This document shows, piece by piece, positions 26,732-51,728 of a stretch of 64,000 nucleotides of DNA. Position numbers and translations under genes: made by a program. The stretch lies in NCBI RefSeq assembly GCF_964204645.1, contig NC_134028.1, forward strand, positions 14,143,653-14,207,652. Reading direction: 5' to 3'. The first letter of the stretch is position 1. Every line of letters begins with the position of its first letter. The stretch comes from Tubulanus polymorphus. Lineage: Eukaryota; Animalia; Nemertea. The notes under the pieces were generated by a model, which did not search any database, was not told where the DNA came from, and saw only the letters and a list, made by a program, of their open reading frames with translations.

Positions 26732-26761
26732 AAATATAAAGTTAAAATTAAGGATATATAA

Positions 26762-28497: not shown

Positions 28498-28499
28498 AT

Positions 28500-28870
28500 T
28501 CAATTAGTTTGTTAATCTAGTTGAATTCTAGTTATTGGTAGTTGTAACAAAAATCAAATAGATTTAACAATATTTTAACTAGCTTGTTAATCTAGTTTAA
28601 TTCTAGTTACATTCTAGTTGAATTCTAGTTGTTAGTAGTTGAAACAAAAATCAACTAGAATGTAACTAGAAATAAACAAAAACAACAATATTTCAACTAG
28701 CTTGTTAATCTAGTTGAATTCTAGTTACATTCTAGTTGAATTCTAGTTGTTAGTAGTTGAAACAAAAATCAACTAGATTTAACAAGAAATAAACAAAAAC
28801 ACTAATATTTCAACTAGCTTGTTAATCTAGTTGAATTCTAGTTACATTCTAGTTAAATTCTAGTTGCAAC
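28500..28870. repeat. Non-coding repeat array (~118-bp units of CTAGTT/GAATTC subrepeats)
   Basis: AACTAGCTTGTTAATCTAGTT recurs at ~28577, ~28695 and ~28812. Confidence 0.85.
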
Positions 28871-28899
28871 ATCACACAATTAATTTTTTTGTTATATAA

Positions 28900-29454
28900 A
28901 TGGTAGGTGAAAAGAAAATAAAATCTAAAAATGGTGATGTTCCAATTGAAAAAACTTTAGATGATTTAGGAATAACAGAAACAAAATTAACTCCAGATGA
29001 TGGTGCTTTAAATAATGTTACAACAAATAATAATTATGAATATTATCTTTATTGTAAACATCAATTAGAAATATTAATAGCATCTGGAAAATGTAAAAAT
29101 TTTGTTGGTAAAAATTTAACTTATAATGAATTAGATACAATGAAATCAGATGAAATTATTAGATTATTTAAGATTTATGAAGCCGCGAGAACAGCTAGAA
29201 TTAATGATGCGATATCAGAAAATGTAGTAAAAGGTTATAGTAAATTATGTAATTATATACTACCAATTGAAGATGAAAATAGATTATATTCCGATTTAAA
29301 AAATGATTATTTAGTTACGACAGAATTAAATAAATGGATTGGATATTTATCATTTCAATTAGGTGGATTTATGACATTATTATCAACTGGGGTTATAACA
29401 TTTTCAAATATTGAAAGTAAAAATATTTCTATAATAAATGAGCGAGGTGGATGA
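28900..29454 (+). CDS. Conserved hypothetical Polinton protein (C-terminal hydrophobic segment)
   Basis: Homologs at 36170-36740 and 60899-61500. Confidence 0.8.
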   Translation: MVGEKKIKSKNGDVPIEKTLDDLGITETKLTPDDGALNNVTTNNNYEYYLYCKHQLEILIASGKCKNFVGKNLTYNELDTMKSDEIIRLFKIYEAARTARINDAISENVVKGYSKLCNYILPIEDENRLYSDLKNDYLVTTELNKWIGYLSFQLGGFMTLLSTGVITFSNIESKNISIINERGG

Positions 29455-29791
29455 AGTGAAGAAAAAACCGAGATCACAGAAACAAATTGAATGGTCTCGG
29501 CAATTAGGAATTAAATCACAAGAATATAAAAAAGCTGTAAAAGAAAAAATAAGTAATAAAAATGTTAATAAAAATAGTGAAAATGTTGTTATTTCTAATC
29601 CTTCTAATGATAGAATATTTGATAAATATTTATATTTTACAGTTGGATTTGTAATTGTATTCATTTTGATTGGGTGTAATTGGTATAAGAAATCAAATAA
29701 AATTCATGGTATTAGTAATTCTGAACCAACTGCTATCAAAAATGAAAGTACTTCTGAAATTCCAAAATTGATAATAAAAAAAATGGATTAA
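29438..29791 (+). CDS. Small single-TM protein with basic N-terminus (KKKPRSQKQI)
   Basis: Homolog at 36737-37072. Confidence 0.78.
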   Translation: MSEVDEVKKKPRSQKQIEWSRQLGIKSQEYKKAVKEKISNKNVNKNSENVVISNPSNDRIFDKYLYFTVGFVIVFILIGCNWYKKSNKIHGISNSEPTAIKNESTSEIPKLIIKKMD

Positions 29792-29851
29792 TATTTTAGA
29801 AAAAAAGCAAAAAAAAATAATTTTTTTAATTAATTAAATATTAATTGAATA

Positions 29852-29914
29852 TCTAACTACTTTTGTCTATCTATGAGGAGCAATTAAATTGTCCAGATAA
29901 GTCATTTCGGATTC
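29852..29914 (-). other. Conserved ~65-nt structured non-coding element (copy 1)
   Basis: Also at 35797-35862 (+) and 61733-61799 (-); hairpin with compensatory changes. Confidence 0.6.
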
Positions 29915-29952
29915 TAGATATTCATTATTTTTATTAATCTATTTTTTTAAAT

Positions 29953-30279
29953 TTAATCAACAATTTCTAAATCATGATGGCCATCTTCATTTTTCCCATG
30001 ATATATTATTTTAAATCCTACTAAATCTTTCAATTCCTCCATACTCAATGAAACCCATTTATCGGGTAAAAACACTTTAAATTCTCGCGATGTACTAACA
30101 TTACAGTAGCTTAAATTAGCTGATACTTTCTCTCCATATTTAGTTTTTATCTTTTCTAATTTTAATATTTTATGTTCAATTTCTTTTGTAACATCAACTA
30201 ACTTTTTTATTTCAAATTGTTTTTTTGCTGGTTTTATTCTGTTATTTATTGTTGCTAAGAATGCTTTTCTATCTCCCAT
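29953..30279 (-). CDS. Conserved small protein (possible OB-fold/ssDNA-binding, inferred)
   Basis: Starts inside the right TIR. Homolog at 51729-52082 shares KYG...F(K/R)xxLPD...GKNExGHH. Confidence 0.7.
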   Translation of the reverse strand: MGDRKAFLATINNRIKPAKKQFEIKKLVDVTKEIEHKILKLEKIKTKYGEKVSANLSYCNVSTSREFKVFLPDKWVSLSMEELKDLVGFKIIYHGKNEDGHHDLEIVD

Positions 30280-30364
30280 TTATTAGGGAAAAAAATTACT
30301 TGTGGTGATGAGTGGTGTCTCGTCCTCTCGTCCTCTGATCTGAACCCCTGATATTCCAATTACT
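30275..30364 (-). repeat. Right TIR of Polinton A
   Basis: Reverse complement of 13841-13930, followed by TSD GAGGTT. Confidence 0.97.
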
Positions 30365-31097
30365 GAGGTTAACTTTTATAAACATCATTACCAAATCAAA
30401 ACCTGCACATCCTATCATAAATAGAAATTCTAAGAATTTATTTCAAAGAATAATAAATTACGTCTAAATATTGGGATTCGAACTCGTAGCATCGATTCAG
30501 GTGCCTTTCCCAAAGCGGGTATCCCGCGGGGAAAACCCATTACTATTTATATCGAGAATGGCCTTTTTGACAGCGAGTTCGGTGAATGAAACAGAAACAA
30601 TTACACAGAAACCCATCATGGAAAGTTTCTTTCTGGTTAAGTAGTTCATTAGATAATTTATCAAAATCATTAGTTGATAATGAATTAAGAATATTAAAGC
30701 AACATTACCCAAATAATGATGATTTTCAATTAATGAGATATAAAGGCGCAATTCCATATTCATTTTATAAATCGCATAATGATTTTAACATGACTGAATT
30801 ATTAAAAGAACAATTCTATGATGAATTAAAAAATGAATATGTTAAAGATGAAGTATATAATAGAAAATTGAATATTTGGAATCATTTTGGAATGAAAAAT
30901 CATGGACAATTAGTAGATTTATATTTAAAATCAGATGTATTATCATTAACTGATATATTTGAAAGGTTTAGAGATGTAAATCTAAAATATTTTAATATTG
31001 ATCCATGTCATTGTTATTCTAGTCCAGGAATAACTTGGGACTGTGGTTTAAAATTTACAGATATAAAAATGGATTTGTTAACAAATATAGATCAATT

Positions 31098-31306
31098 GAG
31101 GAGAGAATCCCACAATGATAATAAAAAGTCCGAAAATGAAACTTCGAGATTAGTAGTTTATTTCAACGTTTCGACTATATCCTAATAGTCATCTCCAGGA
31201 ATAATGACTACTATCTCGAAGTTTCATATTCGGACTTTTTATTATCATTGTGGGATTCTCTCCTCATCGCGTCAACACGGATATTGTGTTCTACCTATCG
31301 TGATAA
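31098..31306. mobile_element. Penelope-type pseudo-LTR fragment with ~60-bp inverted repeat and degenerate hammerhead
   Basis: 7-bp TSD ATCAATT (31091-31097 and 31307-31313). Minus strand CTGGAGATGACTATTAGGATATAGTCGAAACGTT. Confidence 0.65.
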
Positions 31307-32654
31307 ATCAATTATTATTATTTGAAAAATCTATAAGAGGAGGAGTTTCAGGTGTATTAGGTGATAGGTATTTCAATGTAAATGATAACCCTGGATATAA
31401 GTTATTATATATAGATGCAAATAATCTATATGGTTGGGCAATGATGGAACCACAACCTTATGGAGTATTTGAAATAACTGAAGTTTTACAGTATGAAAAT
31501 AATGATAAATACGATTGGAAGAAAAGAATTCTAGATATTTTAGATGATTCAGATACTGGTTACTTCTTTGTTGTAGATTTAGAATACCCTGAAAACATTA
31601 AATCTAAATCTAGAAATCTAGCATACTGTCCCGAACATAAAACTGTAACACATGAAGAATTATCAAATTATCAAAAAAGAATTAAACTTGAAAATCATAT
31701 TCATACAGAAAAGTTAATGGTAACTCAGGAACATAAATATAAGTACGTAGTGCATTATCGGATGTTAAAATTCTGAAATCTAAAACGAGGAATGATTCTA
31801 AAAAAAGTACATATACATACTTCATTTAGTCAATCTAAATGGTTAGAAAAATATATAGATTTTGATACCAAACAGAGAACTAAAGCTAAAACTGACTTTG
31901 AGAAAGATTTTTTCAAACTAATGAATAATGCATTTTATGGTAAGACTTGTGAAATAGTAGAAATTATATTAGAAATAGAAATGATATTGAGTTAGTTAGT
32001 AATGCTAAAAGAATTAGACATTTACCAAAATATCCTAAATTTATTGGTAACAGAATATTTGATGAAAATTTAGCTGCTGTTAAAATAAGGAGGACTTCTT
32101 TGAATTATCAAAAAAGAATTAAACCCGAAAATCATATTCATACAGAAGAGTTATTGGTAACTCAGGAAGATAAATATAATTATGTAGTACATTATAGAAT
32201 GTTGAAGTTTTATTTGAATCAAGCAATGATTCTAAAAAAAGTACATAGGTATATTTCATCCAGTCAATCTAAATGGTTAGAAAAATATATAGATTTTAAC
32301 AGCAAACAGAGAACTGAAGCTAAAACTGATTTCGAGAAAGATTTCTTCAAGTTAATGAATAATGCATTCTATGTTAAGACTTGTGAAAATATTAGAATTA
32401 GAAATGATATTGAGTTAGTTAGAAATGGTAAAAGCATTAGGCATTTACAAACATATCCTAAATTTATTGGTAACAGAATATTTGATGAAAATTTAGCCGC
32501 TGTTAAAATGAGAAGAACATCAATTAAATTTAATAAACCAATTTATGTTGGTGCTTCAGTTTTAGAAATATCAAAACTATTAATGTATGAATTCTTTTAT
32601 AACGTATTACGACCTCATTTTGGAGAAAAGCATATAGAATTCTTATATTTTGAT

Positions 32655-33700
32655 TCTGTAACAGCTGACACCCCAATATTTTTAAAATATATTAATCAAA
32701 TGTTAATTAGAAGAATTTCAGAAATAATTCCAAAACAAAATGAACTTTATATTTCGTATGGTGAAAAAGAATTAATACAAATAAATGGATTAATGGATGT
32801 TTGGACAGAAAATGGATGGGTGAAATTAAAAGAATATAATTAGACATAAAATAAATAAAAAGATTTATAGAGGTAGAACTAAATTAGGATTTGTTGATGT
32901 TACTGAAGATCATAGTTTAATTCAACAAAATGGTGATGAAATAAAACAAACTGATATAAAAATTTGAGATGAATTATTACATAAAAGATTATACCAAAGA
33001 ATGAATTATATGTCATTTGGTGAAATAATTGATAATATTTATAATATAGAACCTGAAACATTGGAAGAAAAAGAATATTTTATCAAAGGATTTTTTATTT
33101 GAGATGGATCAGCAGGTGTGTATAAATATGTTGAAATAAATATTGTTGGTATTTATGCAATCAACATTTGAAATTATTAGAAAGAATTAAAAAATACTGT
33201 GAAGAATAAAAAAGAATTTCCAAATAAAACATTTAGAATCATAGAATACACGTAAATAATTCAAAAGATTTTGCTATAAAATATAATGATGAATTTTATT
33301 TTCCTGCAATCATTAAAAGTAATACTTCAACCAAAGAAAAGATTGTGCCAGATTATGTATTAAATTCAAAATATGATTTAAGAAAATGGTTCTTCATTGG
33401 ATTTTATGCTGCAGATGGTTCAAAAAACTATACGAAACAGAAAACTATATCTTTGACACAAAAAGGAAAAGTTGCTATATCAGGATTAAATATATTATGC
33501 AATTCATTAGGATTTAATATGTTAGTAAATATTAGAAAGGATAAACCAAATGTATTTCAATTAAATATTGATGCATGTAAAAATTAACTAACAGAAGAAG
33601 TTAGAGATTTATTTGAAATATCCAATCCTACAGAATATGTTTATGATTTAACAACTGAAGATGGTACATTTAATTGTGGATTTCCATTAATCATAAAAAT
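32655..33700 (+). pseudogene. Degraded allele of the pPolB intein (LAGLIDADG)
   Basis: SVTADTPIFL...VTEDHSL...FFIGFYAADGS...VYDLTTEDGTF...IK(N)|TDS, at the same site as 17466-18530. Contains stops and frameshifts. Confidence 0.92.
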
Positions 33701-34257
33701 ACAGATTCTTACATATTAAAGATAAAAACTAATAACATAACAGATGATTTAAAAACATTAAAACATCATTTTGATTTCAGTAACTATCCAAAAGCTCATG
33801 AATTGTTTAACAATGATAATAAATAGGTGCCCGGTAAATTCAAAGATGAATTAGGTGGTGAAGAAATGATTGAATTCATAGGTATTAGATCTAAAATGTA
33901 TAGTTATAAAACTAAAACTCATGAAGAAATTGAAAGGAATGACCAAAAGCGTAGTAGAAAAGAATATTCATTTCAAAGATTACATCAATTGTATATTTAA
34001 TGAATAAGTTAGAAACTATAAGATGAAATGTTTAAGATCTGAAGATCACGAGATGTTTATTGAAGAGATAGAGAAGATAAGTTTTAACCCATTCGATGAT
34101 AAAAGATATATTCTAGATGATGGAATTCATACAGTCGGTTATGGTTGCAATTTAGAAGAATATTTAAAATTTAAAAGGGAAGAGTCAAAAGAGAATGAGA
34201 TTATGAAAAGGATTCTAGCGTGTTAATCAAATTTTAGTAAAAAAATATGTATAATAA

Positions 34258-34927
34258 ATGGAGCGGGAACAATCACAAACTAACAATATTACAAATAGTG
34301 CTGTTAATATATACTATAAGAAATATTCAAAATGTGAATTTGATAAACAATCTTCAGAATATAATACAGATAGATATTCTAAAGATGGTAAGCAGAGTTA
34401 CTGCAAAACTTGTAGCAAACTATATGCTAAACAATATCAAGTGAATAATCCAGAAAAATGTAATGAAAAAATAGACGTTGGCGAGCTAATAATCCAGAAT
34501 ATTATAATAATTATCAAAAAGAAAGGTATAAAACAGATTTTAATTTCAAAATGAGAAAATGTTTAAGTTCTAGATTATCACAACTATACAGTAAAGATAA
34601 TCACTCAGACACACTATCTAATTTGTTGGGTTGTTCAGATGAATTCTTAAAATCATGGATTATAAATCAGTTCAATGATGAAATGAATATTAATAATTAT
34701 GTTGAATACTTTCATATTGATCATGTGTTACCAATATCTAAATTTAACATGAATGATGAACACAATGAGAAATTAATCTGGAACTGGAAAAACTTAAGAC
34801 ATTTAGAAAAGAAAGATAATGAAATTAAATCTAACAAACTAGATTTTCAGTTGTATTTAGATCAGCTGTGTAAAGCAAAGACATTTGTTGAATTATGGAA
34901 CTCAACACAGAACGAAAAATACGTTGA
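34258..34927 (+). pseudogene. HNH-type endonuclease (giant-virus-like, CxxC plus HIDH...N...N), frameshifted
   Basis: SYCKTC then FHIDHVLP...WNWKNLRHLEKKDNEIKSNK. Homolog at 63404-63990. Confidence 0.75.
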
Positions 34928-35796
34928 ATCTGAAGCGCTTAGAAAACCGGTAACTCTCGATCTATGTCAAACTGATTATATACAATTGTATTACATCAGA
35001 CCGTCGACGAACATCATAATGCAAAGCTGTAGGTTGTTTACAAAACATCTGTCGCAGTTGTATTCAGTTGAATGGGGAGTACCTCATTTGAACATTGATC
35101 AAACGCGCTCTTTCGGTTGAAAAGAATTAATCAATTTCATCATAACAGAACACCTGTTACCATCGCGGCAGACAGTGTTTAGCTAGTGAATAACTGGCAG
35201 TTATAAGCGCGCAGTGCATAAGCATAGGAACGCATAGGATTTCTCTCTGGAAACATTATTAGGAGTCTACAGTTCTAAATGTAAGTACCGTTTTTGTTGT
35301 TAATAAGGCGCTGGGAAACGTTAAACATGTTTAAGTGCTGTAATTGATATTTGACAACTACAACTTCAAGTTAGTTTAATTCTACGCTAGATATTTATCT
35401 TTTAGATAACAAATTGCTACGCGTAACAAGAAGACAATTGCTATTTGAGTCATGAAAGTGAAGATGGAAGGATGTGGAATCAGAAATTATGGATATTTCA
35501 ACTCATGAGACTGTAGCAGTTTAGTCATACTGTATAGACTTTCAATGTATTACGTTTGCCGGAATTTCAAAAGCGTCATTCAGTCGTTGTTAATGGTTAC
35601 AGCGACAGATGTTGTATTATACTTTATTGATTCCTGCATTCCACACATACCTTACCGGGCCTCAGCCGAGCGGCTTGGAATGTGGAAATCGATACTGACT
35701 GTAGAATAAAATACAATAAAATACATGTGTTTATGAAATAGTATTTCCACCAAGCGTTTCGTTGAATTGATTTTCAGTTTGAGGATTTATTATCGA

Positions 35797-35862
35797 GGAT
35801 CCGAAATGACTTATCTGGACAGTTATAGTTACCGCTCCTATAGATAGACAAAAGTAGTGAGA
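35797..35862 (+). other. Conserved structured non-coding element (copy 2)
   Basis: GGATCCGAAATGACTTATCTGGACAG...CTCCTATAGATAGACAAAAGTAGTGAGA. Confidence 0.6.
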
Positions 35863-36169
35863 TATTGAATCCTAATTTAGATAAAAAGTATTTAAATAAA
35901 CAATAACTTCAAATAGTAATAAAATAACTTAAAACTTTAACACTAGATTGAATAGATTTTGATAAGAATTGAATAAAAAAACAATAACTTCAAATAGATA
36001 GTGAATTATATTATATTTTTAATATTTTCTTTTGCAATTCTAGTTAACACTAGATTAAATAGATTTTGAATAGATTCAAGTAAAAGTATTACTTATCAAA
36101 CACTACTATCACATTAAGTATTATTCTAGTATCATTTTATAATATTTTGCCGCTTTTTCTATTATATAA

Positions 36170-36740
36170 ATGTCAAAGAAATCGAGTGAAAATAGTATTG
36201 ATATTAAAAGACAATTGAGGATTTAGGTATTACTGGCAATAATGATACAGTTGTTTCTAATTGTGCTCAAAATAATAATAATATTGATTATGAATTCTAT
36301 TTAACATGTAAGCACCATCCAGAATTACTAATTGCTAGCGGAAAGTGTAATGAATTTCTCAGTAAAATTATAGCTTATCAAGAATTAGATAATATGAAAC
36401 CAGATAAAGTAATCAAACATTTCAAAATATATGAAGAAGCTAGATTAGCTAGAATAAAGGATTCTATAAGTGATAGAATAGTGAAATGTTACTCGAAGTT
36501 ATGTAACCGGATAAAACAAATTGATGACGGAAATAAATTATATAGTGATTTAAAAAATGATTATTTAGTTATGACAGAATGACAAAAATGGGTAGGTTAT
36601 GCTTCATTTCAATTAGAAGGAATTATGATATTAATTTCCACTGGAGTTATAACATTTTCTAATATCAAGCCTATAGAATATAAAGATAAAAATAAATCAG
36701 AAAATATTGAATCTATTGAAAAATTAACTAAAATAAATGA
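36170..36740 (+). pseudogene. Homolog of 28900-29454
   Basis: FKIYEEARLARI...LYSDLKNDYLVMTE; stops and frameshift. Confidence 0.8.
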
Positions 36741-37072
36741 GTGATGATACTAAGAAAAAGCCTAGATCTGAAAAACAAATTGCATCGTCAAAGCAATTAG
36801 GTGAAAGATCTGCAGAGTTAGAAAAAGCTAAGAAAGAGAAATTAGCTGTTATAAATGAATCATCCGTTATTGATTCGAATGATAATCCATCTAATACTGG
36901 AAGAAATAATTACTTATATATTACAATTGGGTTAATCACAGTAGTTATATTTTTTGGCGTAACATATAAATTCAAATCTAATAATAATCATGATAATGAT
37001 AATGATGATAGAAGTGATGATTATAAACCTATTATACACGAAAATAAATCTAAATTATTATTAATGGATTAA
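36737..37072 (+). CDS. Single-TM protein, homolog of 29438-29791
   Basis: KKKPRSEKQI plus a TM segment. Confidence 0.75.
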   Translation: MSDDTKKKPRSEKQIASSKQLGERSAELEKAKKEKLAVINESSVIDSNDNPSNTGRNNYLYITIGLITVVIFFGVTYKFKSNNNHDNDNDDRSDDYKPIIHENKSKLLLMD

Positions 37073-37078
37073 AATTAG

Positions 37079-38163
37079 ATGAAAAAAGAACAGTATTTAA
37101 GAGATTTATATCATAACCCAGAGAGTGAAGTATCATATTCTAGTGTTTAAGAATTATAGGGTAAAATAGAATTTGATAAAGAAAATATATAAAATATAGT
37201 GAACTAAGATTATGGTTACAAAATCAACCCATGTATCAAATCCATAAGAAAATGGATAAAAATTATTTAACAATAAAAATTATTGTTTCATATATAGATC
37301 AACAATGGCAAGCAGATTTAATTGACATGAAGAACTTAGAGGAATACAATAAAGAATATTTCTGGTTATTAAATGTTATAGATATATTCAGTAGATACGC
37401 ATGGTCAATTCCAATCAAAAATAAAACTGGTATAGAAGTTACTAATGCATTTAAAAATATATTTAAAGAAGCTATCCCAGGAAAGATACAATTTGATGAA
37501 GGTAAGGAATTTTATAATAAACATTTAAAAAAACTATTTTCTGATAACGATGTAGAATATTTTTCAACACACTCAGATAAAAAAGCATCTATTATAGAAA
37601 GTTTTAATAAAACATTGAAAACTAGAATGTGGAAATATTTTACTGCAAATGAAACATATAAATATACCGATGTATTAGATGATTTAGTGAAAGGTTATTA
37701 CAATTCTAAACATAGTTCTATAAATATGAAACCTATACAAGCTAGAAAAGAAGATAATTCAGAAATAGTTTGGAATAATTTATGTGGAGTGTTTGTTACA
37801 CATGATTTTGGAGAACCTAAATTTAAGATTGGACAACACGTTAGAATATCTAAATATCGAAAAACATTAAAAGGTTATACTCCAAATTTTACTGAAGAAA
37901 TATTTAAAATTAAAAAGATAATATTAACTAAACCTTTTGTTTATAAATTAGTAGATTTAAAAGATGACGAAATATTAGGTTATTTCTATGAACAAGAATT
38001 ATCACTTGTACCAAATCCAGATGAAATAGAATACAAAATAGAAAAAGTATTGAAAACAAAAACTCTTAAAGGAAAAAAGTATTCTTTGGTGAAATATAAA
38101 GGGTATGATGATAAATTTAATGAATGGATTTTATCTAGTAAAATTAAAATAATAAATGAATAA
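37079..38163 (+). pseudogene. Polinton B1 RVE integrase with chromodomain
   Basis: WQADLID, QFDEGKEF, IESFNKTL and chromodomain; 5' end disrupted. Confidence 0.9.
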
Positions 38164-38710
38164 AGATTTCTTTATATTTGAACCACATAATATGTTAGTT
38201 ACTGGAGTAACCAACTGTGGTAAAACGTATTTCATATTAGATTTGTTAGAAACTATTTATAAGAATCATTTTGATAATATAATATTATTCTGCCCTACTT
38301 ATGAAATCAATAAAACATATAATAGAGATATGGTTAAGATAAAAAAGTTTATTATATTAGATCCTAAAACAGTGAAAGAAAATTTAGATAATTGTATTAA
38401 AATTGCAATTGATATTCACAAAGGTTCGAATACATTATTCATTATAGATGATTGTGCAAATTTACATGATTCAAAAGTTAGAGAAAGTGAGTTATGTTAT
38501 CCGGCTTTCTCAGAGAGACCTTTTCGTATAACAACTTGGGTTTTAAATCAAAAATATAATATAATTCAATTGTTAAAGATTTTAGAGAAAACATTAGATT
38601 TTAAGTTTTATTCTACAATTAAGATAGAAAATAAGATAAAATCCCACTTTTTACAGATTAAACGAATTTAAAAACCAGAATCTATTTATTCAATCAAAAA
38701 TATATAAAAG

Positions 38711-38752
38711 ACACGACGCTTCGATCTCACCCTAGAGATCATCGTCAGGTGT
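38711..38752 (-). ncRNA. Minimal type I hammerhead ribozyme of Penelope pLTR (GAAA core mutated to GAAG)
   Basis: Minus strand ACAC-CTGACGA-T-GATCTC(TAGGGT)GAGATC-GAAG-CGTC-GTGT. Confidence 0.75.
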
Positions 38753-39287
38753 AAGATATAGATTAAAAACAGGGGTATATATACAGAGGAGGACAGGTTA
38801 ATTGAGTAAATTGGTGAGTGAGTAAATAATTAGTGTTTGGCAAGGCATGAAGTAATATACTTAGAAAGAAGGGAATTATGTGGAGAAAAGCCATTATTTA
38901 AATTGGTACTAATATCTGAGTGACGAGTAATCAGGGCAGACTCAACTATGTTGCGTTTAGTGTAATTGCTGGAAGTATAAATAATTTCGGCTTTATCAAA
39001 ATTAAAACGATGACCAGTGTTCCAAACGTGATTGGCTACGCCACTAGCCGGGTTTTGATTTATTGTATCCTTTTTGTGTTCCGAAATTCGAGTTTTTAAA
39101 TCACGACCAGTTTCTCCAAAGTAAATTTTATCACAGCCAAAACAAGGAATTGTGTAAACTCCGCAGTCCAAAGGTTTAGGTTGATTGTTTTTAACCATTG
39201 ATTGTTTTTAAATTGGTTTAATCTGTAAATAGTGGGATTTTATCTTATTATCCGTTCACCACGTTTGAGTGTTGTTATCGTTCTATT

Positions 39288-41537
39288 ATGTTACCCACGG
39301 ATTTTAATTTGGCTTTGAAATTCTTATTCATAACCTTTCCTCATTTGATCTTTACTTTTCGAAAATACGAATCTGCTGCTTATAAAGCTCACAAATCCAA
39401 AGAAAACGTCATATTTTTTCAAAAATGTCTCCAGGAACCGGTTATTCCTAAATCTCTGAATTGGTTGAATAAATTCAAATCAGATCAACCATTTTCAAAT
39501 GAAGCAGCATCTCATCTAATACATTGCATTGTGGAGGCAAAAGAAACTACCAACACCAATTTCTATGAAATGCGACTAGCAGAACGTTTTCCAGACACCA
39601 TATACCTGATGGTTTCCTTTGGCACTCTCTTCATTGAGGCATCAAGAATCTTTGCGCGGCACATCGTCTTAAGGAAAAATTCGCATTTCTCTTCCATTCT
39701 GAATAAATTAATTGCCAACAGCCCTTGGACCAAATTTTGCGCTACTGATAATGTTGTCAATCTATCTTCGGCTAAATCAACCAAGACACCATTTGGAATA
39801 CCCTTCAACGTCAATCTAATCAGTTCTTTCCTCGGAGATTTTCGATTGCTCTCCATGAACTAAAATCCATCAAAACCATCCGCATCTCCAAGGCTAATAA
39901 AGGCGGCAAAATTGTTATTCAAGATTTGATCAATTACAATTCTAAAATGTTTGCTATTCTCGTTGATTCCAATTTCTACAAATCCATCAAAAACAACACT
40001 TTGAAAAAAATGCAATCAGCTTTTAATTTAGGTTTAAAAAACATCTCTAAGAAATTTCCTAACCATTCGGACTTCATCTTAAAATTTAACTATCGGCTTC
40101 CAAATCTTCCTTATGCTTATGGTCTTCCCAAAATTCATAAACCCAATTCACCTTTAAGACCGATCATTTCTAATATCAATTCTCCATCATATCGGCTCTC
40201 CAAATATGTAGCTAAAGTACTCTCCCCGGCTCTGGGTACTTTTTCTGATTCTCACATTCGGCACAATATGGATCATTTAGACAAACTCAAAAATCTCAAA
40301 CCTAATGGACAAAAATTTATATCTTTTGACGCTGTTTCCTTGTTCACAAATATACCATCGGAACCAACTCTCAATTTCTTAAGAAGAAAACTCCCGGACT
40401 CCAATCTTGTTCTCCCAATTCCCGTAGAATGTTTACTTGAACTTTTGGAACTCTGTACAACCGATCTAAATTTCCAATTCCAAGACAAATTCTATGAACA
40501 AATTTTCGGTTTCGCTATGGGTAACCCATTATCCCCCATTTTGGCTAATCTTTTCCTTGAACACTTTGAATCCGAAATTCTCCCTAAGTACGCTGGCTCT
40601 AAGCCTAACTTTTGGATTAGATATGTTGATGACATTCCGTGCTTAGTTTCTGATAATTTTGATCTTACCTCTTTTATCGACTTCATCAACTCCCAATATC
40701 CATCTTTGAAATTCACTTTTGAATGGGAACAAAATGACCAAATTCCGTTTTTAGATGTTCTAATTCACAATAAAATATCTCATTTGATTTTATCAGTCTA
40801 CCTAAACCTATCAACGCCGAGGCATACCTTCACTTCTTTTCGTTTACTGCTAAATCAATCAAAATTGGTCTCGCTCAAGGTCTCTTTCTCCGTGCACTAC
40901 GGATTTGCGATGAAACCTTCCTTTCGGCTGAATTTGAACATATATCCAACTCTCTTAGAAAATTGGCTTACCTTGATCACATTTTGAAAATCGCTATTTC
41001 TAAGGCTAAACGTACTTTCTTCAATTCTAAACCTCCAGAAAATAAAAAAAAACACATTTCAGAGTTCACTGTAGTTCCGTATGTACCTGTTTTGGAAAAG
41101 TTTCGTCACTCTCTCCCTTAATTGGATAAACAAATCATTTCACGTATGAAAACAAAATTAGTAAGACTTTGGTTAAAAACAATCAATCTAAACCTTTGGA
41201 CTGCGGAGTTTACACAATTCCTTGTTTTGGCTGTGATAAAATTTACTTTGGAGAAACTGGTCGTGATTTAAAAACTCGAATTTCGGAACACAAAAAGGAT
41301 ATAATAAATCAAAAACCGGTTAGTGGCGTAGCCAATCACGTTTGGAACACTGGTCATCGTTTTAATGTTGATAAAGCCGAAATTATTTATACTTCCAGCA
41401 ATTACACTAAACGCCACATAGTTGAGTCTGCCCTAATTACTTGTCACTCAGATATTAGTACCAATTTAAATAATGGCTTTTCTCTACATAATTCCATTCT
41501 TTCTAAGTATATTACTTCATGCCTTGCCAAACACTAA
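39288..41537 (+). pseudogene. Penelope-like RT/GIY-YIG polyprotein (frameshifted)
   Basis: ORFs 39288-39863, 39926-40987 and 41169-41537. Confidence 0.9.
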
Positions 41538-41615
41538 TTATTTACTCACTCACCAATTTACTCAATTAACCTGTCCTCCTCTGTATATATATACCCTGTT
41601 TTTAATCTATATCTT

Positions 41616-41651
41616 ACATCTGATCTCTAGGGTGAGATCGAAACGTCGTGT
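41616..41651 (+). ncRNA. Second hammerhead copy (deletion in the CUGAnGA core)
   Basis: ACATCTGATCTCTAGGGTGAGATCGAAACGTCGTGT; GAAAC intact, core shortened. Confidence 0.65.
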
Positions 41652-41939
41652 CTTATATATTTTTGATTGAATAAATAAATTCTGGTTTTTAAATTCGTTT
41701 AATCTGTAAATAGTGGGATTTTATCTTATTATCCGTTCACCACGTTTGAGTGTGGTTATCGTGGTTATCGTTCTCCAATAAAGATAGAAAATCAATGCAA
41801 CAATCATTGGAAGAAAATCATATTATACCTACTGAATTACATGATGAATATATGAATAAATTAAAAAGTAATAAAGGTTCAAAATTATTACTGAGACTAC
41901 AATTTCCTTATGAATAGAAATTTATAAAATACCTATTTA

Positions 41940-42265
41940 TATATCTATGTACGAGACGTACGAGTAAGAAACCAAGATTCTTGCCAAGAAATTAAGAAAG
42001 TAAGAATTCTTGGATTCTTACTCGTACCTCTCGTACTTGGGTATATGAATTAGTTTTGTAATAATTAAAAATATAAAAACGAATAAATGTTTTCACTTAA
42101 TTAAATAAAAATAGATTATATTATAACTATTTCTATACTTAGATAAATAATTTACATTTTTAATTTTGAAAAACTAATTTACATATCTAATTACGAGACG
42201 TACGAGTAAGAAAGTAAGAATTCTTGGATTCTTGGATTTTTACGTACGTCTAGTACATAGATATA
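41940..42265. repeat. Palindromic repeat cluster downstream of the B1 ATPase
   Basis: GTACGAGACGTACGAGTAAGAA direct and inverted copies. Confidence 0.75.
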
Positions 42266-45200
42266 TTAATCATTCTAATTTTGTTTCTGATATGTTTATA
42301 AAATCATCTTTGTTTATATCTAATTCATAATAATGCTTAGGTAGATTTATCAATTTTAGTTGAACCATCAGATTATGATAATTAGTATGTATCATACCTT
42401 CTTCTCTTAATTTTTCAAAGTATTCATCAAAATAGAAATCAAAATGATATCCAAAATTTTTTATAAGATAACTTAAATCTATTTTTCTAAAATATAATAA
42501 TTTATATATTTGTTTAGGATTATCTTCTGCATAAGCTAATAATTTATCAAATAACAACTTATAGAATATATAATATTGTTTAGTTTTAGTGATGCAGCGG
42601 AACTAATAAGGAACATTTTGATATATAACATGACCATAGTACACTATCCCTGATGGAATAATAAGCTCCACTCGACAAACTCGTTCCCGTGTATTTTTAT
42701 CTCTGTTTCAGCACACATAACAACTATGGCGGCTTTTCGAGGTGCATGATGGGAGTGTAAATTACGGATTCGAACTTAAACTTGGTGCCAATGCAGATAT
42801 TAATCTTGTTTCAAATTATTAAGGTTAAAATTGACCAAAATATATGCGTTTTATCAACAAGAAAATCACATTTAGAGTAATTTTAGAGAGACATATTGAA
42901 TTTTCACATCGTATTAATTTAGTCCGTATTGGAAATCCTGATAGTGGCAATCAATTCAATTCAAATCAAATCAATAAATTCTCCGGTTCGCGATTTAAAT
43001 CATCAAAAAATTTATTATAAATCACGTTTTCAAAGTCAACAAGGTAACTAATTTATTTATTTTAGTACAAAGGTTTGATTTGACACTAAAATCAGTTGTT
43101 GCATTGCAATTAACAGGAGTTAACCTCTATATGATACTTTAGCGTCAGACGTTGTACGGAACCGTAACAACGACTGGTATTCAGACTACACACACACAGC
43201 CCCTCTACCATCAATGCCTAACCCCTGTTCGACCAACTGTGGGCGTTTTACTTTGAAACATAAGCCTAATTGTAAAAGATAAGCATTAATCTAAGTTAAT
43301 GCTGCATCTTTGTCATGAAACCTAAGAAAGATTATTCTATTATTTAGGCCTATTCAAATTTTCTGTCCACTACCACGTGGAAAAAAGACCCAGTCAAAAT
43401 TGTGCATCACGCTTTGACAATGAAATTGGTTCTAGGCTATAAATTTTACGACTCAAACGAATCTTTTCCTTAACAAAGCCGCTTTTAGTTTGAAGCAAAA
43501 TGTCATTTGCTTTTAAAATGTGTAATTAGGCCTAATCAAAAGGATACTTCAAAGGCAAACTTTGCCGGGCCAAGAGCCATATTGAATTCAATTTTTTCCG
43601 AACCATTATGCCTCTTTCATCATAACATTATTTATTCTATTTCAAGATCTTAGGCCTACAAGTAGAGAGAGGGCCTACGTTGGGTTCAAATCGGAATTTT
43701 AAGATTTATTTCATTTAAATCTAGGTTTTCACTGTAGATTATCAAAGACATGTGGCGTTGTGGGAGTTCATAGTTGTTTGATAATCCATCATTTGTAAGT
43801 GTAAGGCTATTTGAGGGATTCGAAACCGACATTTTGTAAATTTTGTAGCTTTATTACGTTTAATTCCAGATGTTTACCATGACACGTTTCATTTTGGGGG
43901 TTTGTCAGCGAGTTGGTATGCTGTCGGCAGAAGTAGTTTGATAATTCGTTCCATGTAAGTAAATAGCAATTTGAAGGATTCGAAACCGAAATCCGTATTG
44001 TGAATTTTTTAGTTGTATTTTGTTTGATTCTAGGTGTTTATCATGAATAGGACATGATTCATTTTGAGAGTTTGTCCGCGAGTTTGTATACTGTCAAATG
44101 AAGTTTCTTCGTCAATTTGACGTATGTAAGTATCAATCTATAGTTTATATATAAGGGGTTCGATACAGACATTTGGTGAATTCCTCAGATTTTATTTATT
44201 CCAGGTTGTCAGAAAAATATGTACTTTATTTCATAGGTTGGTCTTTGATTGAAAACTAAAAATGGATGATAGTTCTAAATTTGATGTTGATTCACATGAC
44301 CAATCTAGTAAGTATGGCTCACTCGTCTTTTAGAATAAGAGATCTATTGCATTAATCCTTCAATTCAAGTTGCTATACAACCTTTTATACAGATATTTAC
44401 CTTATCAATATAAACATGTATTTGCCATTAGCCATACAATTCAGTAAAACTTTTCCCATCCAGATTTTGAAACATCATTTGACTCAATTTTTCCTCCTAG
44501 CAAATTGCTTTAGCTCATTCCAATGTTCGCAGTAAAAGTGAATTGTAGCATGTATGATTCCCATCCATCAATTTTGTCTTGTTTCGTATTTTTAGCGAAA
44601 ATCTCGAAAAAGTCTGACGTCGCGGCAGGTGGTGGCCAGAAAAAGGAATATTCTTGGGAAATATTTAAAGACGCATGGCAAACACACTTATTGTTCACTT
44701 TTTTCCTATCCTTATTTTTAAACTGAAGTATTGTAATAAACTATTGATTTATTTTTGTTGATCAACGCAACTAGTTTTGTTGTTTTCTTTCTTAATTTAC
44801 ATTTGAATTGGATGGTCACCTTGCGTAGGAGTCTGTTTGTCATCGAAGCAATACAGTCTAACATGTTGACGTCTCAGATGCAGCGGGGCAGGGCGGTCAT
44901 TATATTGTGGACTTTTCCAAATTACACTTACACAGCCCAACGTGTTTCAGTGTGTAAACTCCGTCGTACTCCGCATTATAAGACAGTGAGGAATTGAGTT
45001 TTAGTCACTTCCTTCGGCTTGATTCGACCAAAAAGACCTTAACTGACTCCACAGAATTTGATTATGAGTCAAGGATTTTCTAAATTTCTGAATGCTTTCT
45101 CTGGTTTTAAGATCAATTCAAATTCAATCTTCAAAATATTTTTGTTGAAAGAAATTCTACTGAAGACAGATTTTGAAATGAAGGATATATCCAGGCAAAT

Positions 45201-46748
45201 AAATACAGCAAAATCAACTGATGATCATCAAGGTGAAGTTTTCATTCATCTTCGGCTAATTTGTCTACCCCTGATGATTGAAGCATTTTGGTTACTCGCG
45301 CCAATTAGTCAGCCACAGTCGATTTTCATACCATCTGACCTCTTTCCATCTGTAATTAAGCAATCAAATGTAAGAATTACTTAGATAAGGAGCGAAATAA
45401 TATATAGATATCTTAGGAGACTATTTGAAATCATGAGTTTGTTGTGAAAATCTATTACTACAGTCTCGTAGAGCATAGACACCAAGCCACGTGGCATTGG
45501 TATTTTAAGGGCTATTCAGTTTACTCCAAAACAAGTCAATGATTAACATTAAAAAAAGCTTCATATCAAGGGTATGTCGCAGGACTCGTGACGCCCATGA
45601 ATTACCATCCCATAATTACAATGAATCCAATTCTGCATGTACGTTAGCACGACTGAATACTAATCCAAATATTGCATTAAAAAAAAACAAATATAGCTGC
45701 TAAGCAGCGATGACGGGTTTTCTGTAAAGCCATTCAGAATGATGGGAATTGTAGTAGGCCTAAATTGAAATTTCGATACAAAGAATAAAATGCATTGACA
45801 GATTCGAACCTAATATGCAACCACTGTGTAAACGTCAAATATGATTCAGCTTTGAAACCAATCATACGCGGACGTACAGTCACAAATATTAATATATTTG
45901 ACCAGGTATTTATTTTGGCATTCAAACATCATGATACTGTATTATCACCATCCTTAAAAATGGATCTGTCCTATTAAGAAGTCATCTTAAGCACCTGCTG
46001 AGCCGATAGATTGAGTGAATTCACAGATAAGAACGTATTATGATTTAGAATAGATTTAAGAAGTTAATGTTTTTATTGAAATATTTGAATAAATACATAT
46101 ATTGTAGTGTAGATTCAATCAATAAATTATGAATTGATTTGGTCTGGGTTTCCGGCTGATGTTGATTTGGCTTTTATGGATTACAAATTCTATAGTAATA
46201 AACAATTGATACCTGCAACATGTGTGTAAATTAAACCTATTCCATTAGTTGCGTGTGTTTCCAAATAAACGGGAGAGTCACTCTTGATCTGAGTTATTAG
46301 AACAAGGGGTCCAAAACACCATGCCCACTTGGGAAGTGGTTCCAAATGCTCAACAATGTAACAATTCAGGTATCAAAGGTATAAGACATCCCTTTTCAAA
46401 GAATACCCATCAAAAATTGCAATGAGAAATGGCAAACTCAGAATTCGGGCCAAAATTGACATTTTTGGGCACTAAAAAAGGTCATAGCATGACCATCTTG
46501 AGTCCGTATCCCAATTTCTGTTATGCTGATGGGCCCAGGGGGCATTCGCATATATCCGAAAGATCAAGGTAATTGATCGAAGCATCTTCAAAATTTCCCT
46601 CAAAAAGTTAAAAAAATGTGTAAAAAGTGTTGATTTTGGAGAACAACAATGGCTGGCAATGGAACCAGAATTCTAGCCCGAGTTAAGCGAACTATTGATT
46701 CTGATATAATGTAAGAACTGATTTCCTTTGTGTACTCTTGCAGAATGT

Positions 46749-47080
46749 CATCCTCCCCCGGCAGCAGGGATTCGAACCTGATGGCATCGAGATTGCCACG
46801 GCACGAAACCCTGCCATAATCGACCATGTGCGCAGATACATGCGCAGTTCAGATGATGTGATATTTAGCCAATCAGAAATCCCGTTTTATTTTAGCCCGG
46901 GTTTTCCCATTTATAGTTCTTCCTTGAAATTTGCCTCAACGATTATACAACGAGCAATCTGATTGGTGCCGCCAGTTTTTGTTCAGAAAGCTGCGCATGT
47001 ACCTGCGCACCCGGTCTACTGATGCAGGGGTTCGTGCCGTGGCGATGCCATCAGGTTCGAGTCCCTGCAGAGGGAGAATG
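46749..47080. mobile_element. MITE with long imperfect TIRs and 9-bp TSD (Mutator-like)
   Basis: GCAGAATGT at 46740-46748 and 47081-47089. Arms GCAGGGATTCGAACCTGATGGCATCG / CGATGCCATCAGGTTCGAGTCCCTGC. Confidence 0.8.
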
Positions 47081-47346
47081 GCAGAATGTGTTATGTATTA
47101 TTTCAAGCTGTTAAATCATACAGTTAGACAAACATCCAATTATTGAATCTTTCTTGTTGACTCGTCTAATTTTGTGAGTTTAGAGTTCCAGTCAATCCAC
47201 AATGTGCAGTGCCTAGCCTTCATCTACACTAAAGCCATGCCTGTGTATGGGAAAATGTCGTTCGACTCCTATAAGCCAGACAAATCAAAGCATGCAATAC
47301 ATTGCAGATAGTAGTCTCCGGCAAGTTGAAAGAGAAAGTAAACCAG

Positions 47347-47756
47347 AGTAATAGGGGTAATAGGCTTTCAAATCAAAGGTCGAACGGTCGAGCTCATTAA
47401 AAAACAAAATATTAAAAGTAATTTAAAACTATAATATATTTTCATAACCGTGTGCATTTCATATTATAACTAAATATTTATTCTAAGATATTAATAATTT
47501 TAATTTTAAAAGCATATTGTATTAAATCAATTGGTCGCTCCGCTTCGCTACAAGCTCCGCTGCGCGACCAATTGATTTAATACAATACACAAATTCATAT
47601 AATCAAATACATTTTAATAATAATAATTATTCTATTATTCAACTGAAATGCACACGGTTATGAAAATATATTATAGTTTTAAATTACTTTTAATATTTGT
47701 TTTTAATGAACTCGACCATTCAACCTTTAACCTGAAAGCCTATTACCCCTATTACT
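47347..47756. repeat. 410-bp fold-back built from Polinton B-type termini
   Basis: AGTAATAGGGG...CCCCTATTACT with ~115-bp outer arms and an inner ~25-bp hairpin. Same termini as 7088-11388; no TSD. Confidence 0.85.
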
Positions 47757-48021
47757 CTTAAAATAATCATATACATGAATAACATTTAAATTGACAGATT
47801 ATTCAATATAAAAGTGTAAGCTCTTATAGAATAGATAGATAGATATATTTTAAACATTATTTCAATATTCATATTTGTATGAGTTAGATTTTTAAACATT
47901 AAAAGTGTTAGTAAAGTGTGATTGAAATAATACATGATATAAATCATTGAACTTCTAAAATCAATTTTAATAAAAAATTTAGTATTAAAATAAAAATAAA
48001 TTAAACAATAAAAGACCATAC

Positions 48022-51000
48022 ATGGAAGATGTAAGAAAATATATTAATTTATTAGATAATAAAAAAGATATAGAGATAACCAAAGCATCTAAAAGTGATA
48101 TCGGCCCTGCAGCTATCGAGTTTAAATTTCATAAAGGAAAAACATTAGAAGAAAATAAAAAACATTTAGAAAATATGAAAGAAATAATAAAAATAATAAC
48201 TGATGTTGAATATCCTAAAATAAGTATATCTTCTAAAGTTAAATTCATAAAATCTGAAGATAAACCAATATATTATATAAATTCTCATTCACAACATATT
48301 ATATATAAACAACATATAGATGATAAATTAGATAAATGTTATAATGAAGTAAAAACTAAAATAGAAGAGAAATATTTTGAAGGATCTGGTTTAATATTTG
48401 AAGAAATAATATTTATGACTTTACATGTTTATGACACAAAATATAATAAGTTAACTAAATCAAAACCAATTGATGAAAATAATGTATCATATTATAAAGA
48501 ACCAGATATTGAAGCATCGAGTTACATTAAACTACCATTTAAAACTAATGCTGTAATAAATGTACAAAATTTTGATGATAAATGTTTTCTATGGGCTATA
48601 ATAAGTTGTTTACATCCTGCAACTTATAATATTTGTAGATTAACTCATTATAAACCATTTGAAAATAATTATAAGATAGATAAGTATCCTGTTATAATTA
48701 AAAACATCCCAAAAATAGAAAGAGATAATAATATAAAGATAAATGTATTTGATTTAATCAAATTGCCAAATACAAAAGGTAACAATATAAAACATTATAC
48801 ATTAGAACCTTTATATCTATCAAAAGATTATGATTCAAACGATGTTATAGATATATTATATTATGAGAATCATTATATGTGGATTAAACAAATAGATTTA
48901 TTCTTTAGAACAGAAAGTGATCACCATAATAAAATATATCTATGTAGAAAATGTTTACATAAATTCAGTAATGAAAGTACATTATTAAATCATAAACAAT
49001 TATGTGAAAATCATGATTATTGTAAATTAGTTTTACCAAATGAAAAGGATAAAATATTAGAATTCAAAAAATATGATTACAAAAATAAAGTTCCATTTGT
49101 CATATATGGAGATTTTGAATCATTAAATAAAGAATTAACTGATCAAGATAGAAAAGAAATATATTATAAAAGAAAGAAATTAAATTCTAATGAAAATGAT
49201 TTTTCAGATGAACCACCAATAACAAATACTATTAAAAAGATACATCAATCAGCTGCAGCTTTCGGGTTATATATTAAATCTGATTATCCAGAACTAATTA
49301 AAAGTAAATATTATCATTACAGAAATGAAAATCTTATAAATCATTTTTGTGACTTATTAATTGAATATGAAATAAAATTTAATGAAAAGTTAAATAAAAA
49401 TATAGAAATTATAATGACAGAAGAAGATAAAGAAGCATTTGAGTTTGCAGATAAATGTTATTATTGTGAAAAGAAATTTATTTATAAAGATAAATAAGTA
49501 AGAGACCATGATCATTTGAATGAAAAGTTTAGAGGCGCTGCACATGAGAATTGTAACTTACAAGCTAAGAAAATTAACTTTGTACCAGTTATATTTCATA
49601 ATCTATCAGGATATGATGCACATTTATTCATCAAACAGTTATGCCATAAAATAGAAGAAATCAATAATGAAATAGAAAGATTAAATTCAAAAGGATCAAA
49701 AGCTAAAATACCAACTTATGAATTTAGAATGTTAGCTAAAACATCTGAGAATTATATATCATTCCAATTTGGTTGCCTAAGATTTATAGATTCATATAGA
49801 TTTTTAAATAGTTCATTAGATAACTTATCAAAATCATTAGTTGATGATGAATTAAAAATATCAAAGCAACACTATCCAAATAATGATGATTTTCAATTAA
49901 TGAGATATAAAGGCGCAATTCCATATTCATTTTAAAAATCACATAATGATTTTAATATAACTGAATTATTAAAAGAACAATTCTATGATGAATTAAAAAA
50001 TGAATATGTTAAAGATGAAGTATATAATAGAACATTGAATATTTGGAATCATTTTAGAATGAAAAATCGTGGGCAATTAGTAGATTTATATCTAAAATCA
50101 GATGTATTATTATTAACCGATATATTCGAAAGGTTTAGAGATGTAAACCGAAAATATTTTGATATTGATCCTTGTCATTGTTATTCTACTCCAGGTTTAA
50201 CATGGGATTGTGGATTAAAATTTACAGATATAAAAATGGATTTGTTAACAAATATAGATCAATTATTATTTGAAAAATCTATAAGAGGAGGAGTTTCAGG
50301 TGTATTTGGTGATAGATATTGCAATGTAAATGATAACCCTGGATATAAGTTATTATATATAGATGCAAATAATTTTTATGGTTGGGCAACGATGGAACCA
50401 CAACCTTATGGAGTATTTGAATTAACTGAAGTTTCACAACATGAAAATAATAATAAATTTGATTGGAAGAAAAGAATTCTAGATATTGCAGATGATTCAG
50501 ATACTGGTTACTTCTTTGTTGTAGATTTAGAATATCCTGAACGTATTAAATTTAAATCTAGAAATCTAGCATACTGTCCCGAACATAAAACTGTAACTCA
50601 TGAAGAATTATCAAATTATCAAAAAAGAATTAAACCCGAAAATCATATTCATACAGAAAAGTTAATGGTAACTCAAGAAGATAAATATGTAAAAAATTAT
50701 GTAGTACATTATAGAATGTTAAAGTTTTATCTAAAACAAGGAATGGTTCTAAAAAAAGTACATAGATATATTTCATTCAGTCAATCTAAGTGGTTAGAAA
50801 AATATATAGATTTTAACACCAAACAGAGAATTGAAGCTAAAACTGATTTCGAGAAAGATTTCTTCAAGTTAATGAATAATGCATTCTATGGTAAGACTTG
50901 TGAAAATATTAGAAATAGAAATGATATTGAGTTAGTAAGTAATGGTAAAAGAATTAGACATTTACAAACATATCCTAAATTTATTGGTAACAGAATATTT

Positions 51001-51683
51001 GATGAAAATCTAGCCGCAGTTAAAATGAGAAGAACAAGTATGAAGTTCAATAAACCTATTTATGTTGGAGCATCAGTTTTAGAATTATCAAAGTTATTAA
51101 TGTATAAATTTTACTATAACGCATTACAACCACTTTTTGGAGAAAAACATATAGAAATATTATATTTTGATACTGACAGTTAGATATTAAAGATAAAAAC
51201 TAATAAAATAACAGATGATTTAAAAACATTAAAACATCATTTTGATTTCAGTAATTATCCTAAAAATCATGAATTGTTTAGCAATGATAATAAAAAAGTT
51301 CCCGGTAAATTCAAAGACGAGGTGGCGAAGAAACGATTGAATTCTTCGGTATTAGATCTAAAATGTATTCATATAAAACTAAAGAACATGAAGCTAAAAA
51401 GTTAAAAGGAATAACCAAAAGTGTAGTAGAAAAGAATATTCATTTCAAAGATTACATCAATTGTATATTCAATGAAGAAGTTAGAAAACATAAGATGAGA
51501 TGTTTAAGATCTGAAGATCATGGAATGTTTATTGAAGAAATTGAAAAGATAAGTCTAAACCCATTTGATGATAGAAGATATATTTTAGATGATGGAATTC
51601 ATACAGTTGCTTATGGTTGTAATTTAGATGAATACTTAAAATTTAAAAGAGAAGAAACAAAAGATAAGGAAATAATGAAATGA
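48022..51683 (+). pseudogene. polB: Polinton B2 pPolB, intein-free allele
   Basis: All pPolB motifs; uninterrupted YFDTDS at 51163-51180; several premature stops. Confidence 0.93.
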
Positions 51684-51728
51684 ATTCTAACGTGTTAATC
51701 AAATTTTAATTAAAAATATGTTATTAAA

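Follow-up and report, generated by a model that had tools for sequence, protein, structure and literature searches.

How can the same insertion site in a polymerase gene be filled in two copies and vacant in a third, when the vacant copy is the close relative of one of the filled ones? The question is raised by a stretch of 64,000 nucleotides (nt) of contig NC_134028.1 (assembly GCF_964204645.1), referred to at its full length as the window, which holds three copies of the pPolB DNA polymerase gene of Polintons, here termed A, B1 and B2. All three are decaying genomic copies. A and B1 are interrupted at one and the same point by an intein, and B2 is not. We find that at least part of this intein has very probably moved laterally, and we regard it as probable that it spread between Polinton lineages by endonuclease-driven homing, with cleavage being read from the footprints that it would leave.

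An intein in motif C of the Polinton polymerase

The features on which the argument turns are given below (the bar in a motif marks the point of insertion).

17466..18530, plus strand: intein of A, 355 amino acids (aa) and 1065 nt in an open frame, from Ser1 to Asn355 with Thr+1 following, in motif C (YFD|TD)
17466..18126, plus strand: 5' part of the A intein, with 14/171 silent differences from B1 and recently shared with it
18127..18530, plus strand: 3' part of the A intein, at extein-level divergence from B1 (30/100 silent differences)
17898..17921, plus strand: first LAGLIDADG motif of the A intein, GFFMGDG, acidic residue present
18234..18257, plus strand: second LAGLIDADG motif of the A intein, GFYAAHGT, His at the conserved acidic position
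32655..33700, plus strand: intein of B1, broken, with the junction TTT GAT|TCT at 32655
32490..32654, plus strand: foreign flank upstream of the B1 intein, about 160 bp, differing from both B2 and A
51163..51180, plus strand: empty target site of B2, TAT TTT GAT|ACT GAC AGT, the junction lying between 51171 and 51172

These occupied and empty sites lie where the first-pass annotation had located them, down to the coordinates and motifs. In A the junction reads TTC GAT|TCT at 17466, and a Thr codon stands after the 3' end of the insert, which separates the Asp from the Thr of polymerase motif C, the PolB-c intein site. As the insert divides a catalytic motif, polymerase activity is predicted to need protein splicing. 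The homologous proteins P0094-P0108 are colinear with the polymerase without an insert, except for P0104, which is occupied, and P0101, which ends just past the site.

The residues of the A intein are those of a class 1 intein, with Ser1, a block B of VTEDH at 82-86, Asn355 and Thr+1; the penultimate residue is Lys, not His, as it also is in the giant-virus relatives L001, L002 and L006. The intein passes the cut-off of TIGR01445 (30.2 vs 24.5 bits) and falls below that of PF14890 (30.2 vs 35.8 bits). A structure model built from 36 sequences has a predicted local distance difference test (pLDDT) value of 88.8 (47.8 for an earlier model from 5 sequences), and its best fold matches are the Tli VMA, PI-PkoII and PI-PfuI inteins (Foldseek E 2.6e-17 to Tli VMA). 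A profile search recovers the same three together with I-DmoI, and the model helices 136-150 and 248-265, which match I-DmoI and PI-SceI, are the two LAGLIDADG helices. By sequence and model, the insert of A is a Hint intein with a two-motif LAGLIDADG domain, predicted to be self-splicing. The B1 intein bears three stops, one of them in the first LAGLIDADG motif, and seven frame-shifting gaps.

Both alleles recur in independent raw whole-genome shotgun reads (run X5, about 12% of the run, from a study other than X1-X4, at an 85% likeness threshold). Depth, which does not give copy number, is roughly 540 and 470 over the exteins and roughly 230 over the 5' intein, with A-type exteins falling mostly below the threshold, and 221 reads join across the site without the insert, with several variants of the 3' flank. 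The occupied and the empty allele are both multi-copy. Among 40 of the 321 rows, A's letter is found at 24 of the 25 intein places. At 17 of these, 88-100% of reads have it, so that B1's letter there is marked as private decay, and at the other 7 it stands in 54-67%, which indicates two intein haplotype classes. Reads at least 99% alike to B1 number 91 of 6987. Run X7 gave no records, a result without bearing on expression. An empty allele with exactly the B1 flank was also sought in X5 and set aside: 89 reads join there, with the flank letters not displayed.

Silent divergence, tract edges and trees

Beside the site, the two exteins of B1 and B2 are 91% and 89% identical in nucleotides and those of A and B1 76% and 76%, while the inteins of A and B1 are 88% identical. 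The first-pass annotation had described the B1 exteins as nearly identical to those of B2 and clearly diverged from those of A; the divergence from A holds, whereas the likeness to B2 is close but amounts to only about 90%. The peptides that it had singled out as common to B1 and B2 are present in both (NVNDNPGYKLLY at 31375 and 50323, DWKKRILDI at 31513 and 50461), and so are the long stretches shared by the A and B1 inteins, where the longest identical runs measure 41 and 40 nt as against 23 nt in the exteins. With silent divergence taken as the differing codons among codons for the same residue, A and B1 differ at 44/271 in the intein and 143/404 in the exteins (Fisher p 3e-8), and B1 and B2 at 60/499. 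Composition bias was rejected as the source of this A-B1 contrast, the GC content of third codon positions (GC3) being 0.152 in both regions. At the protein level the A and B1 inteins are 82% identical and the exteins 70% and 75%, so that the intein exceeds the better extein by about 7 points; among the other occupied polymerase pairs with alignable exteins, the margin is never more than 4 points (28 of 28). This excess is modest, and it is therefore the silent-site contrast that carries the case.

The shared intein is itself a mosaic, its 5' part (14/171) and 3' part (30/100) differing in silent divergence with a permutation p of 0.0002. The left edge of the shared tract falls at -3 nt from the splice junction, with an interval of -18 to +12 for silent sites and -33 to +57 for all sites. 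Upstream of it, inside the flank at 32490..32654, the silent differences between B1 and B2 rise to 15/43, as against 7/109 farther upstream (permutation p 0.0016), and over the same region A differs from B1 at 15/37 and from B2 at 15/38. Downstream of the site, B1 departs from B2 over the first three codons and matches it thereafter. We infer that the flank is a co-conversion tract, and its unlikeness to both A and B2 indicates a third, unsampled lineage as the source. Judged from the window, either B1 or B2 may be the copy with the foreign tract, and the transfer may have run in either direction. The simplest reading needs no fewer than two events, in one of which occupied alleles would have exchanged the 5' part, and in the other of which homing would have set an intein against a new flank at the junction.

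The first-pass annotation had argued for a recent transfer between subfamilies. Lateral movement is upheld, but a single recent transfer of the whole intein from A to B is not: such a move does not fit a mosaic with an old 3' third, and it was rejected on the mosaic together with the foreign flank. B1 was likewise rejected as an active donor, being broken. Equal divergence of intein and exteins had been named as what vertical inheritance would give; the two are unequal over the intein as a whole and agree in its 3' third.

The extein trees pair A with the empty P0094 and set B1 beside B2 among the empty P0095-97; a clade uniting the A and B1 exteins is rejected (approximately unbiased [AU] test p 9e-55). 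Taken with the silent contrast, these trees do not fit plain vertical descent. On an extein tree of 44 rows, 10 of them occupied, the occupancy of the site needs 8 changes (mean 9.2 when shuffled); the rows were picked by hand, in part from the best 120 of 6218 matches, so that the tree shows scatter and not frequency.

Inteins fill this site also in P0104, P0123 and P0063, whose exteins are 58%, 48% and 44% identical to those of A, respectively. The cluster of P0123 (136 members), which consists of intact proteins on long contigs and may derive from more than one host genome, includes 7 occupied and 6 empty members and 2 that do not cover the site among the 15 listed. Over the 400 residues ahead of the site, its occupied members and three of its empty ones share 97.5-99% identity. 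The occupied members carry the short flank YMD|TDSFVLSVNT, which is characteristic of another subfamily, absent in the empty sisters and present in 13 empty rows elsewhere in the clade; YMD precedes the site in 21/21 occupied rows of that clade, whereas the empty rows vary. The footprints expected of homing appear in two separate Polinton families.

Other observations bear on the spread of the intein and its site. The P0216 cluster is a third family with two alleles, with 3 occupied members and 1 empty one (P0357) on the same flank among the 15 listed. In P0215, which matches PF03175, an intein 47% identical to that of A sits at YLD|S between exteins that cannot be aligned to A's; it appears to be a jump into a distant pPolB group. 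Cys in place of Thr at +1 (DCD) occurs in 46 of 94 empty motif-C sites (P0109-P0213, P0337-P0350), and others vary before the site; such variants are possibly an escape from cleavage.

All 16 pPolB inteins fall on one side of a branch (100/99) and adjoin the giant-virus PolB-c inteins L001, L002 and L006, which sit at YGD|TDS and have a C-terminal GFPLI motif in common with them. With the tree rooted at its midpoint, this suggests that the Polinton inteins entered once from giant-virus PolB. Among the matches listed, neither a viral scan (37 loci) nor a metagenome scan (at least 55 loci) gave anything above 42% full-length identity, and no free Polinton contig with an intein was found among the 37 viral loci, whose insertion sites were read. 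A representative search brought up other inteins; of the 27 best matches scanned, 26 lay in PF00136 polymerases and one in a topoisomerase. P0300, a related intein at the same site, belongs to the DNA polymerase delta of Chloropicon primus, a case already reported (PMC10710043).

As the first-pass annotation had noted, the second LAGLIDADG motif keeps its Asp in B1 (GFYAADGS at 33399) and has His in A; with the stop in the first motif of B1, neither window copy has both acidic residues. Across 50 Polinton-type intein proteins, the acidic residue is kept in 42/42 first motifs and 33/34 second motifs, A being the sole exception. Hence, the A and B1 inteins are predicted to be unable to cut DNA, while the wider lineage retains the nuclease. 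The full-length Polinton inteins measured span 333-355 aa, with no mini-intein among them. Judged against these homologs, damage to a single integrated copy is a rather more likely origin of the His than loss throughout the lineage. Changes private to A at deep-invariant columns number 5/88 in the intein and 6/67 in the N-extein when compared with B2, and 1/68 and 1/40 when compared with P0094, counts that fail to separate private decay from a change of the subfamily. The decay of the nuclease had also been offered as a phase of the homing cycle, a proposal that finds no support here: the motifs are conserved, A itself is a frameshifted copy and B1 is broken. With empty alleles common and nuclease motifs conserved, the fixation-and-decay phase of that cycle is not seen in these elements.

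The process that we propose draws its splicing, cutting and repair steps from established intein biology. The intein would splice itself out, restoring the polymerase active site; copies with both acidic motifs would cut the vacant motif-C site in a Polinton replicating alongside; and repair from the occupied template would copy the intein along with a short donor flank. Homing on more than one occasion, together with recombination between occupied alleles, would produce the mosaic of recent 5' two-thirds and old 3' third, and the B1 allele would most likely have come by way of a third lineage, not directly from A. Since B1 has lesions of its own and every haplotype class exists in multiple copies, homing likely took place among active, replicating elements before integration. 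The intein lineage itself likely entered the Polintons once, from a giant-virus PolB.

Homing and the alternatives

Several observations weigh against homing. The 3' third of the intein is no closer between A and B1 than are the exteins (30/100 vs 143/404, p 0.35). A and B2 share six central-module genes at 3.5-11% silent difference, although their polymerases differ at about 34%; the integrase and ATPase differ from those of B1 by 60/188 and 30/111. Modules appear to have been exchanged between Polinton lineages, ordinary recombination being widespread among these elements, and the sharing between A and B2 implies that shared tracts need no endonuclease. The conserved motif-C sequence may itself promote crossovers at the junction. 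The Pfam intein and LAGLIDADG scores lie slightly below their cut-offs, A and B1 are weakly supported as intein sisters (82/52), and change counts on the tree cannot separate gain from loss. The deep intein tree follows the extein tree, which makes most of the history vertical.

If the intein were old in both lineages and had been moved by ordinary recombination or gene conversion, with the empty alleles arising by conversion from lineages that were never invaded, no endonuclease would be involved. The old 3' third, the exchange of a whole module between A and B2 and the deep congruence of intein and extein identity in the 28 of 28 other pairs all agree with such a history. It leaves a tract edge within about 30 nt of the splice junction to be explained, together with short foreign flanks centered on the site in two separate families. 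Furthermore, both catalytic motifs are conserved across lineages 41-64% identical, which requires selection on the nuclease. We therefore consider this history unlikely, even though it is the best of the alternatives to homing.

Vertical descent from the common ancestor of A and B, in which B2 and the other empty lineages lost the intein precisely and the intein is just better conserved than its exteins, seems very improbable. It accounts for the 3' third, and precise loss by recombination with an empty allele belongs to the published model, as set out in the accessible part of PMC1654191. However, the contrast lies at silent sites with equal GC3, and 14/171 vs 143/404 largely refutes this history; the ceiling of 4 points in the other occupied pairs counts against it as well. 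Moreover, the closest relatives of A and of B are both empty, which would require many precise losses.

That B1 or A is a chimera assembled from collapsed copies of a repeat, making the mosaic an artefact, is hardly credible: the family is of high copy number and few X5 reads match B1 closely (the 91 of 6987 above), but A has matched terminal repeats and a target duplication, both allele types and two intein haplotype classes occur in independent reads, the private lesions of B1 span intein and exteins alike, and the same pattern is seen in another family (P0123).

Elements of the window and the meaning of their intein

The window is AT-rich eukaryotic DNA (GC 27.8%), crowded with mobile elements. 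Polintons, also known as Mavericks, are recognized by terminal inverted repeats, a 6-bp target duplication and a length of 15-25 kb, and A agrees with them in its polymerase, integrase and packaging ATPase genes, terminal repeats, target duplication and size. The elements and genes that surround the intein are as follows.

13841..30364, plus strand: Polinton A, complete integrated copy of 16.5 kb, recognized by terminal inverted repeats, target duplication and Pfam genes
13968..18986, plus strand: pPolB gene of A (PF03175 E 5.5e-18; tblastn with the full-length homolog P0095; translation)
26773..28494, plus strand: retroviral-type integrase with chromodomain (PF00665 E 1.8e-9) and A32-type packaging ATPase (PF04665 E 3.5e-13) of A
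30634..34223, plus strand: broken pPolB gene of B1, in which about 430 bp are duplicated in tandem
48013..51695, plus strand: pPolB gene of B2 without an intein, interrupted by stops and a frameshift

Polinton A ends in 93-bp terminal inverted repeats (91/93 identical) between copies of the 6-bp target duplication GAGGTT, and its pPolB (PF03175), rve integrase (PF00665) and A32 ATPase (PF04665) all score above the Pfam cut-off. The N-terminal part of its polymerase is split over three reading frames by two frameshifts, and 15522-18986 is open. A search for capsid and protease genes at 25484-26728 and 22613-24016 of A gave no Pfam, NCBIfam or PDB sequence match; the former may, by its position and motif, encode a double jelly-roll capsid protein. 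The central module shared by A and B2 (20353-26730 and 52094-58114) is 88-94% identical in long blocks, the polymerases being about 74-80% alike, and A and B are best described, as far as their sequences tell, as polymerase lineages and not as whole-element subfamilies.

The tandem duplication in the B1 polymerase comprises 31666-32098 and 32103-32521, the copies being just 86% alike. A fourth, B-like polymerase fragment is split between 1-1316 and 12665-12865 by about 11 kb of inserts and stops short of motif C; a 168-bp repeat (1317-1484 and 12020-12188) lies near it. A further Polinton fragment on the minus strand (59341-63967) contains an ATPase, an integrase and their neighbors and is 92% alike to the integrase-ATPase block of B1. 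An open reading frame (ORF) family without a Pfam match directly follows the B1 polymerase (34467-35117) and recurs on the minus strand at 63407-63967; we presume a resemblance to viral HNH-type proteins. The B1 ATPase gene is interrupted by a Penelope-type element (38627-41733; reverse transcriptase [RT] and GIY-YIG domains) with a 570-bp inverted copy of its own end, and resumes at 41771. For the RT of this element (39776-40984), the nearest 8 of 8 listed clusters have an animal phylum as the commonest taxon, and the host is likely an animal. Remains of a Gypsy-type long terminal repeat retroelement (3279-7022, 43-46% GC) match protease, RNase H and integrase zinc-finger domains, and a phage search with the Gypsy ORF gave no match. 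A long tandem array of short period (8094-11000) has a strong GC skew and leaves several frames open.

The nearest known counterparts are the PolB-c inteins of Mimivirus and other giant viruses, which in the available parts of PMC549080 and PMC5784728 share with the intein of A the family B motif C site (YGD|TDS vs YFD|TD), the Ser1, Asn and Thr+1 residues and the LAGLIDADG domain. The Mimivirus intein is also of similar length, 351 vs 355 aa (PMC549080, seen in part), and inteins from giant-virus metagenome-assembled genomes are 42% identical to that of A. The hosts differ: the giant-virus enzymes are RNA-primed PolB, whereas the present one is the protein-primed polymerase of a 16.5-kb integrating element, which, unlike the giant viruses, forms a multi-copy chromosomal family with both alleles. 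The archaeal PI-PkoII (2cw7), Tli VMA (7qsu/7qss) and PI-PfuI (1dq3) have the same Hint fold with an inserted two-motif LAGLIDADG domain but are only 13-18% identical and reside in cellular archaeal hosts.

Nucleases have been described in Polinton polymerases before, namely HNH and VSR insertions in the pPolB2 of nematodes, oomycetes and molluscs; the accessible portions of these reports (bioRxiv 10.1101/2023.08.22.554363, PMC11161782) describe no splicing domain, whereas the insert described here has a full Hint and LAGLIDADG architecture, interrupts the catalytic motif and has empty alleles. One sentence in the text available of PMC11161782 (preprint PMC11071308) suggests intein invasions as the source of such insertions, while the word "intein" occurs 0 times in the text of the bioRxiv report and in the available text of PMC8502044. 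Algae and protists have inteins in their endogenous viral DNA polymerases, with intragenomic spread in Anaeramoeba. These resemble the present case in being viral-type polymerase inteins on nuclear scaffolds that spread between paralogs of one genome; they differ in their non-animal hosts, and the main text of that report (PMC10710043, available in part) uses neither "Polinton" nor "Maverick". "Polinton" occurs 0 times in the available text of PMC5784728, and the portions available of PMC12220804, PMC3671162, PMC5718144 and PMC13768754 hold only general mentions. In the literature that we searched, which left out Repbase and most subscription journals, we met with no Polinton polymerase described as carrying a splicing intein, although paper supplements could list some; as far as searched, this combination of a known kind of intein with a new kind of host element is undescribed. 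The homing cycle as outlined in the accessible part of PMC1654191 is matched in the lateral spread and in the occupied and empty alleles side by side, but without a fixation-and-decay phase the Polinton case is nearer the persistence models of that review.

The excerpts available of PMC7765530 and PMC6805012 confine inteins to unicellular eukaryotes and viruses and give them as absent from metazoan genomes. If the gene-drive reading given below is true, mobile inteins would exist in metazoan nuclear DNA. A splicing-type intein in Polinton polymerases would be the first concrete instance of the "intein invasion" suggested in PMC11161782 (in the part available). Polymerase activity in the occupied lineages is predicted to depend on protein splicing. 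A gene transfer for which both must be present in one cell would link giant viruses and Polintons, and the footprints of homing imply that distinct Polinton lineages come together in one nucleus and recombine there. Both alleles have a read depth in the hundreds, which makes of these dated copies a population where one may count invasion, resistance and loss within one genome. With somewhat less than even confidence, we further suggest that an intein derived from giant viruses has colonized the active site of Polinton polymerases and acts as a natural gene drive among the endogenous viruses of animals, homing between co-resident lineages in several unrelated hosts, the target-site variants of the empty lineages (such as Cys at +1) being escape alleles.

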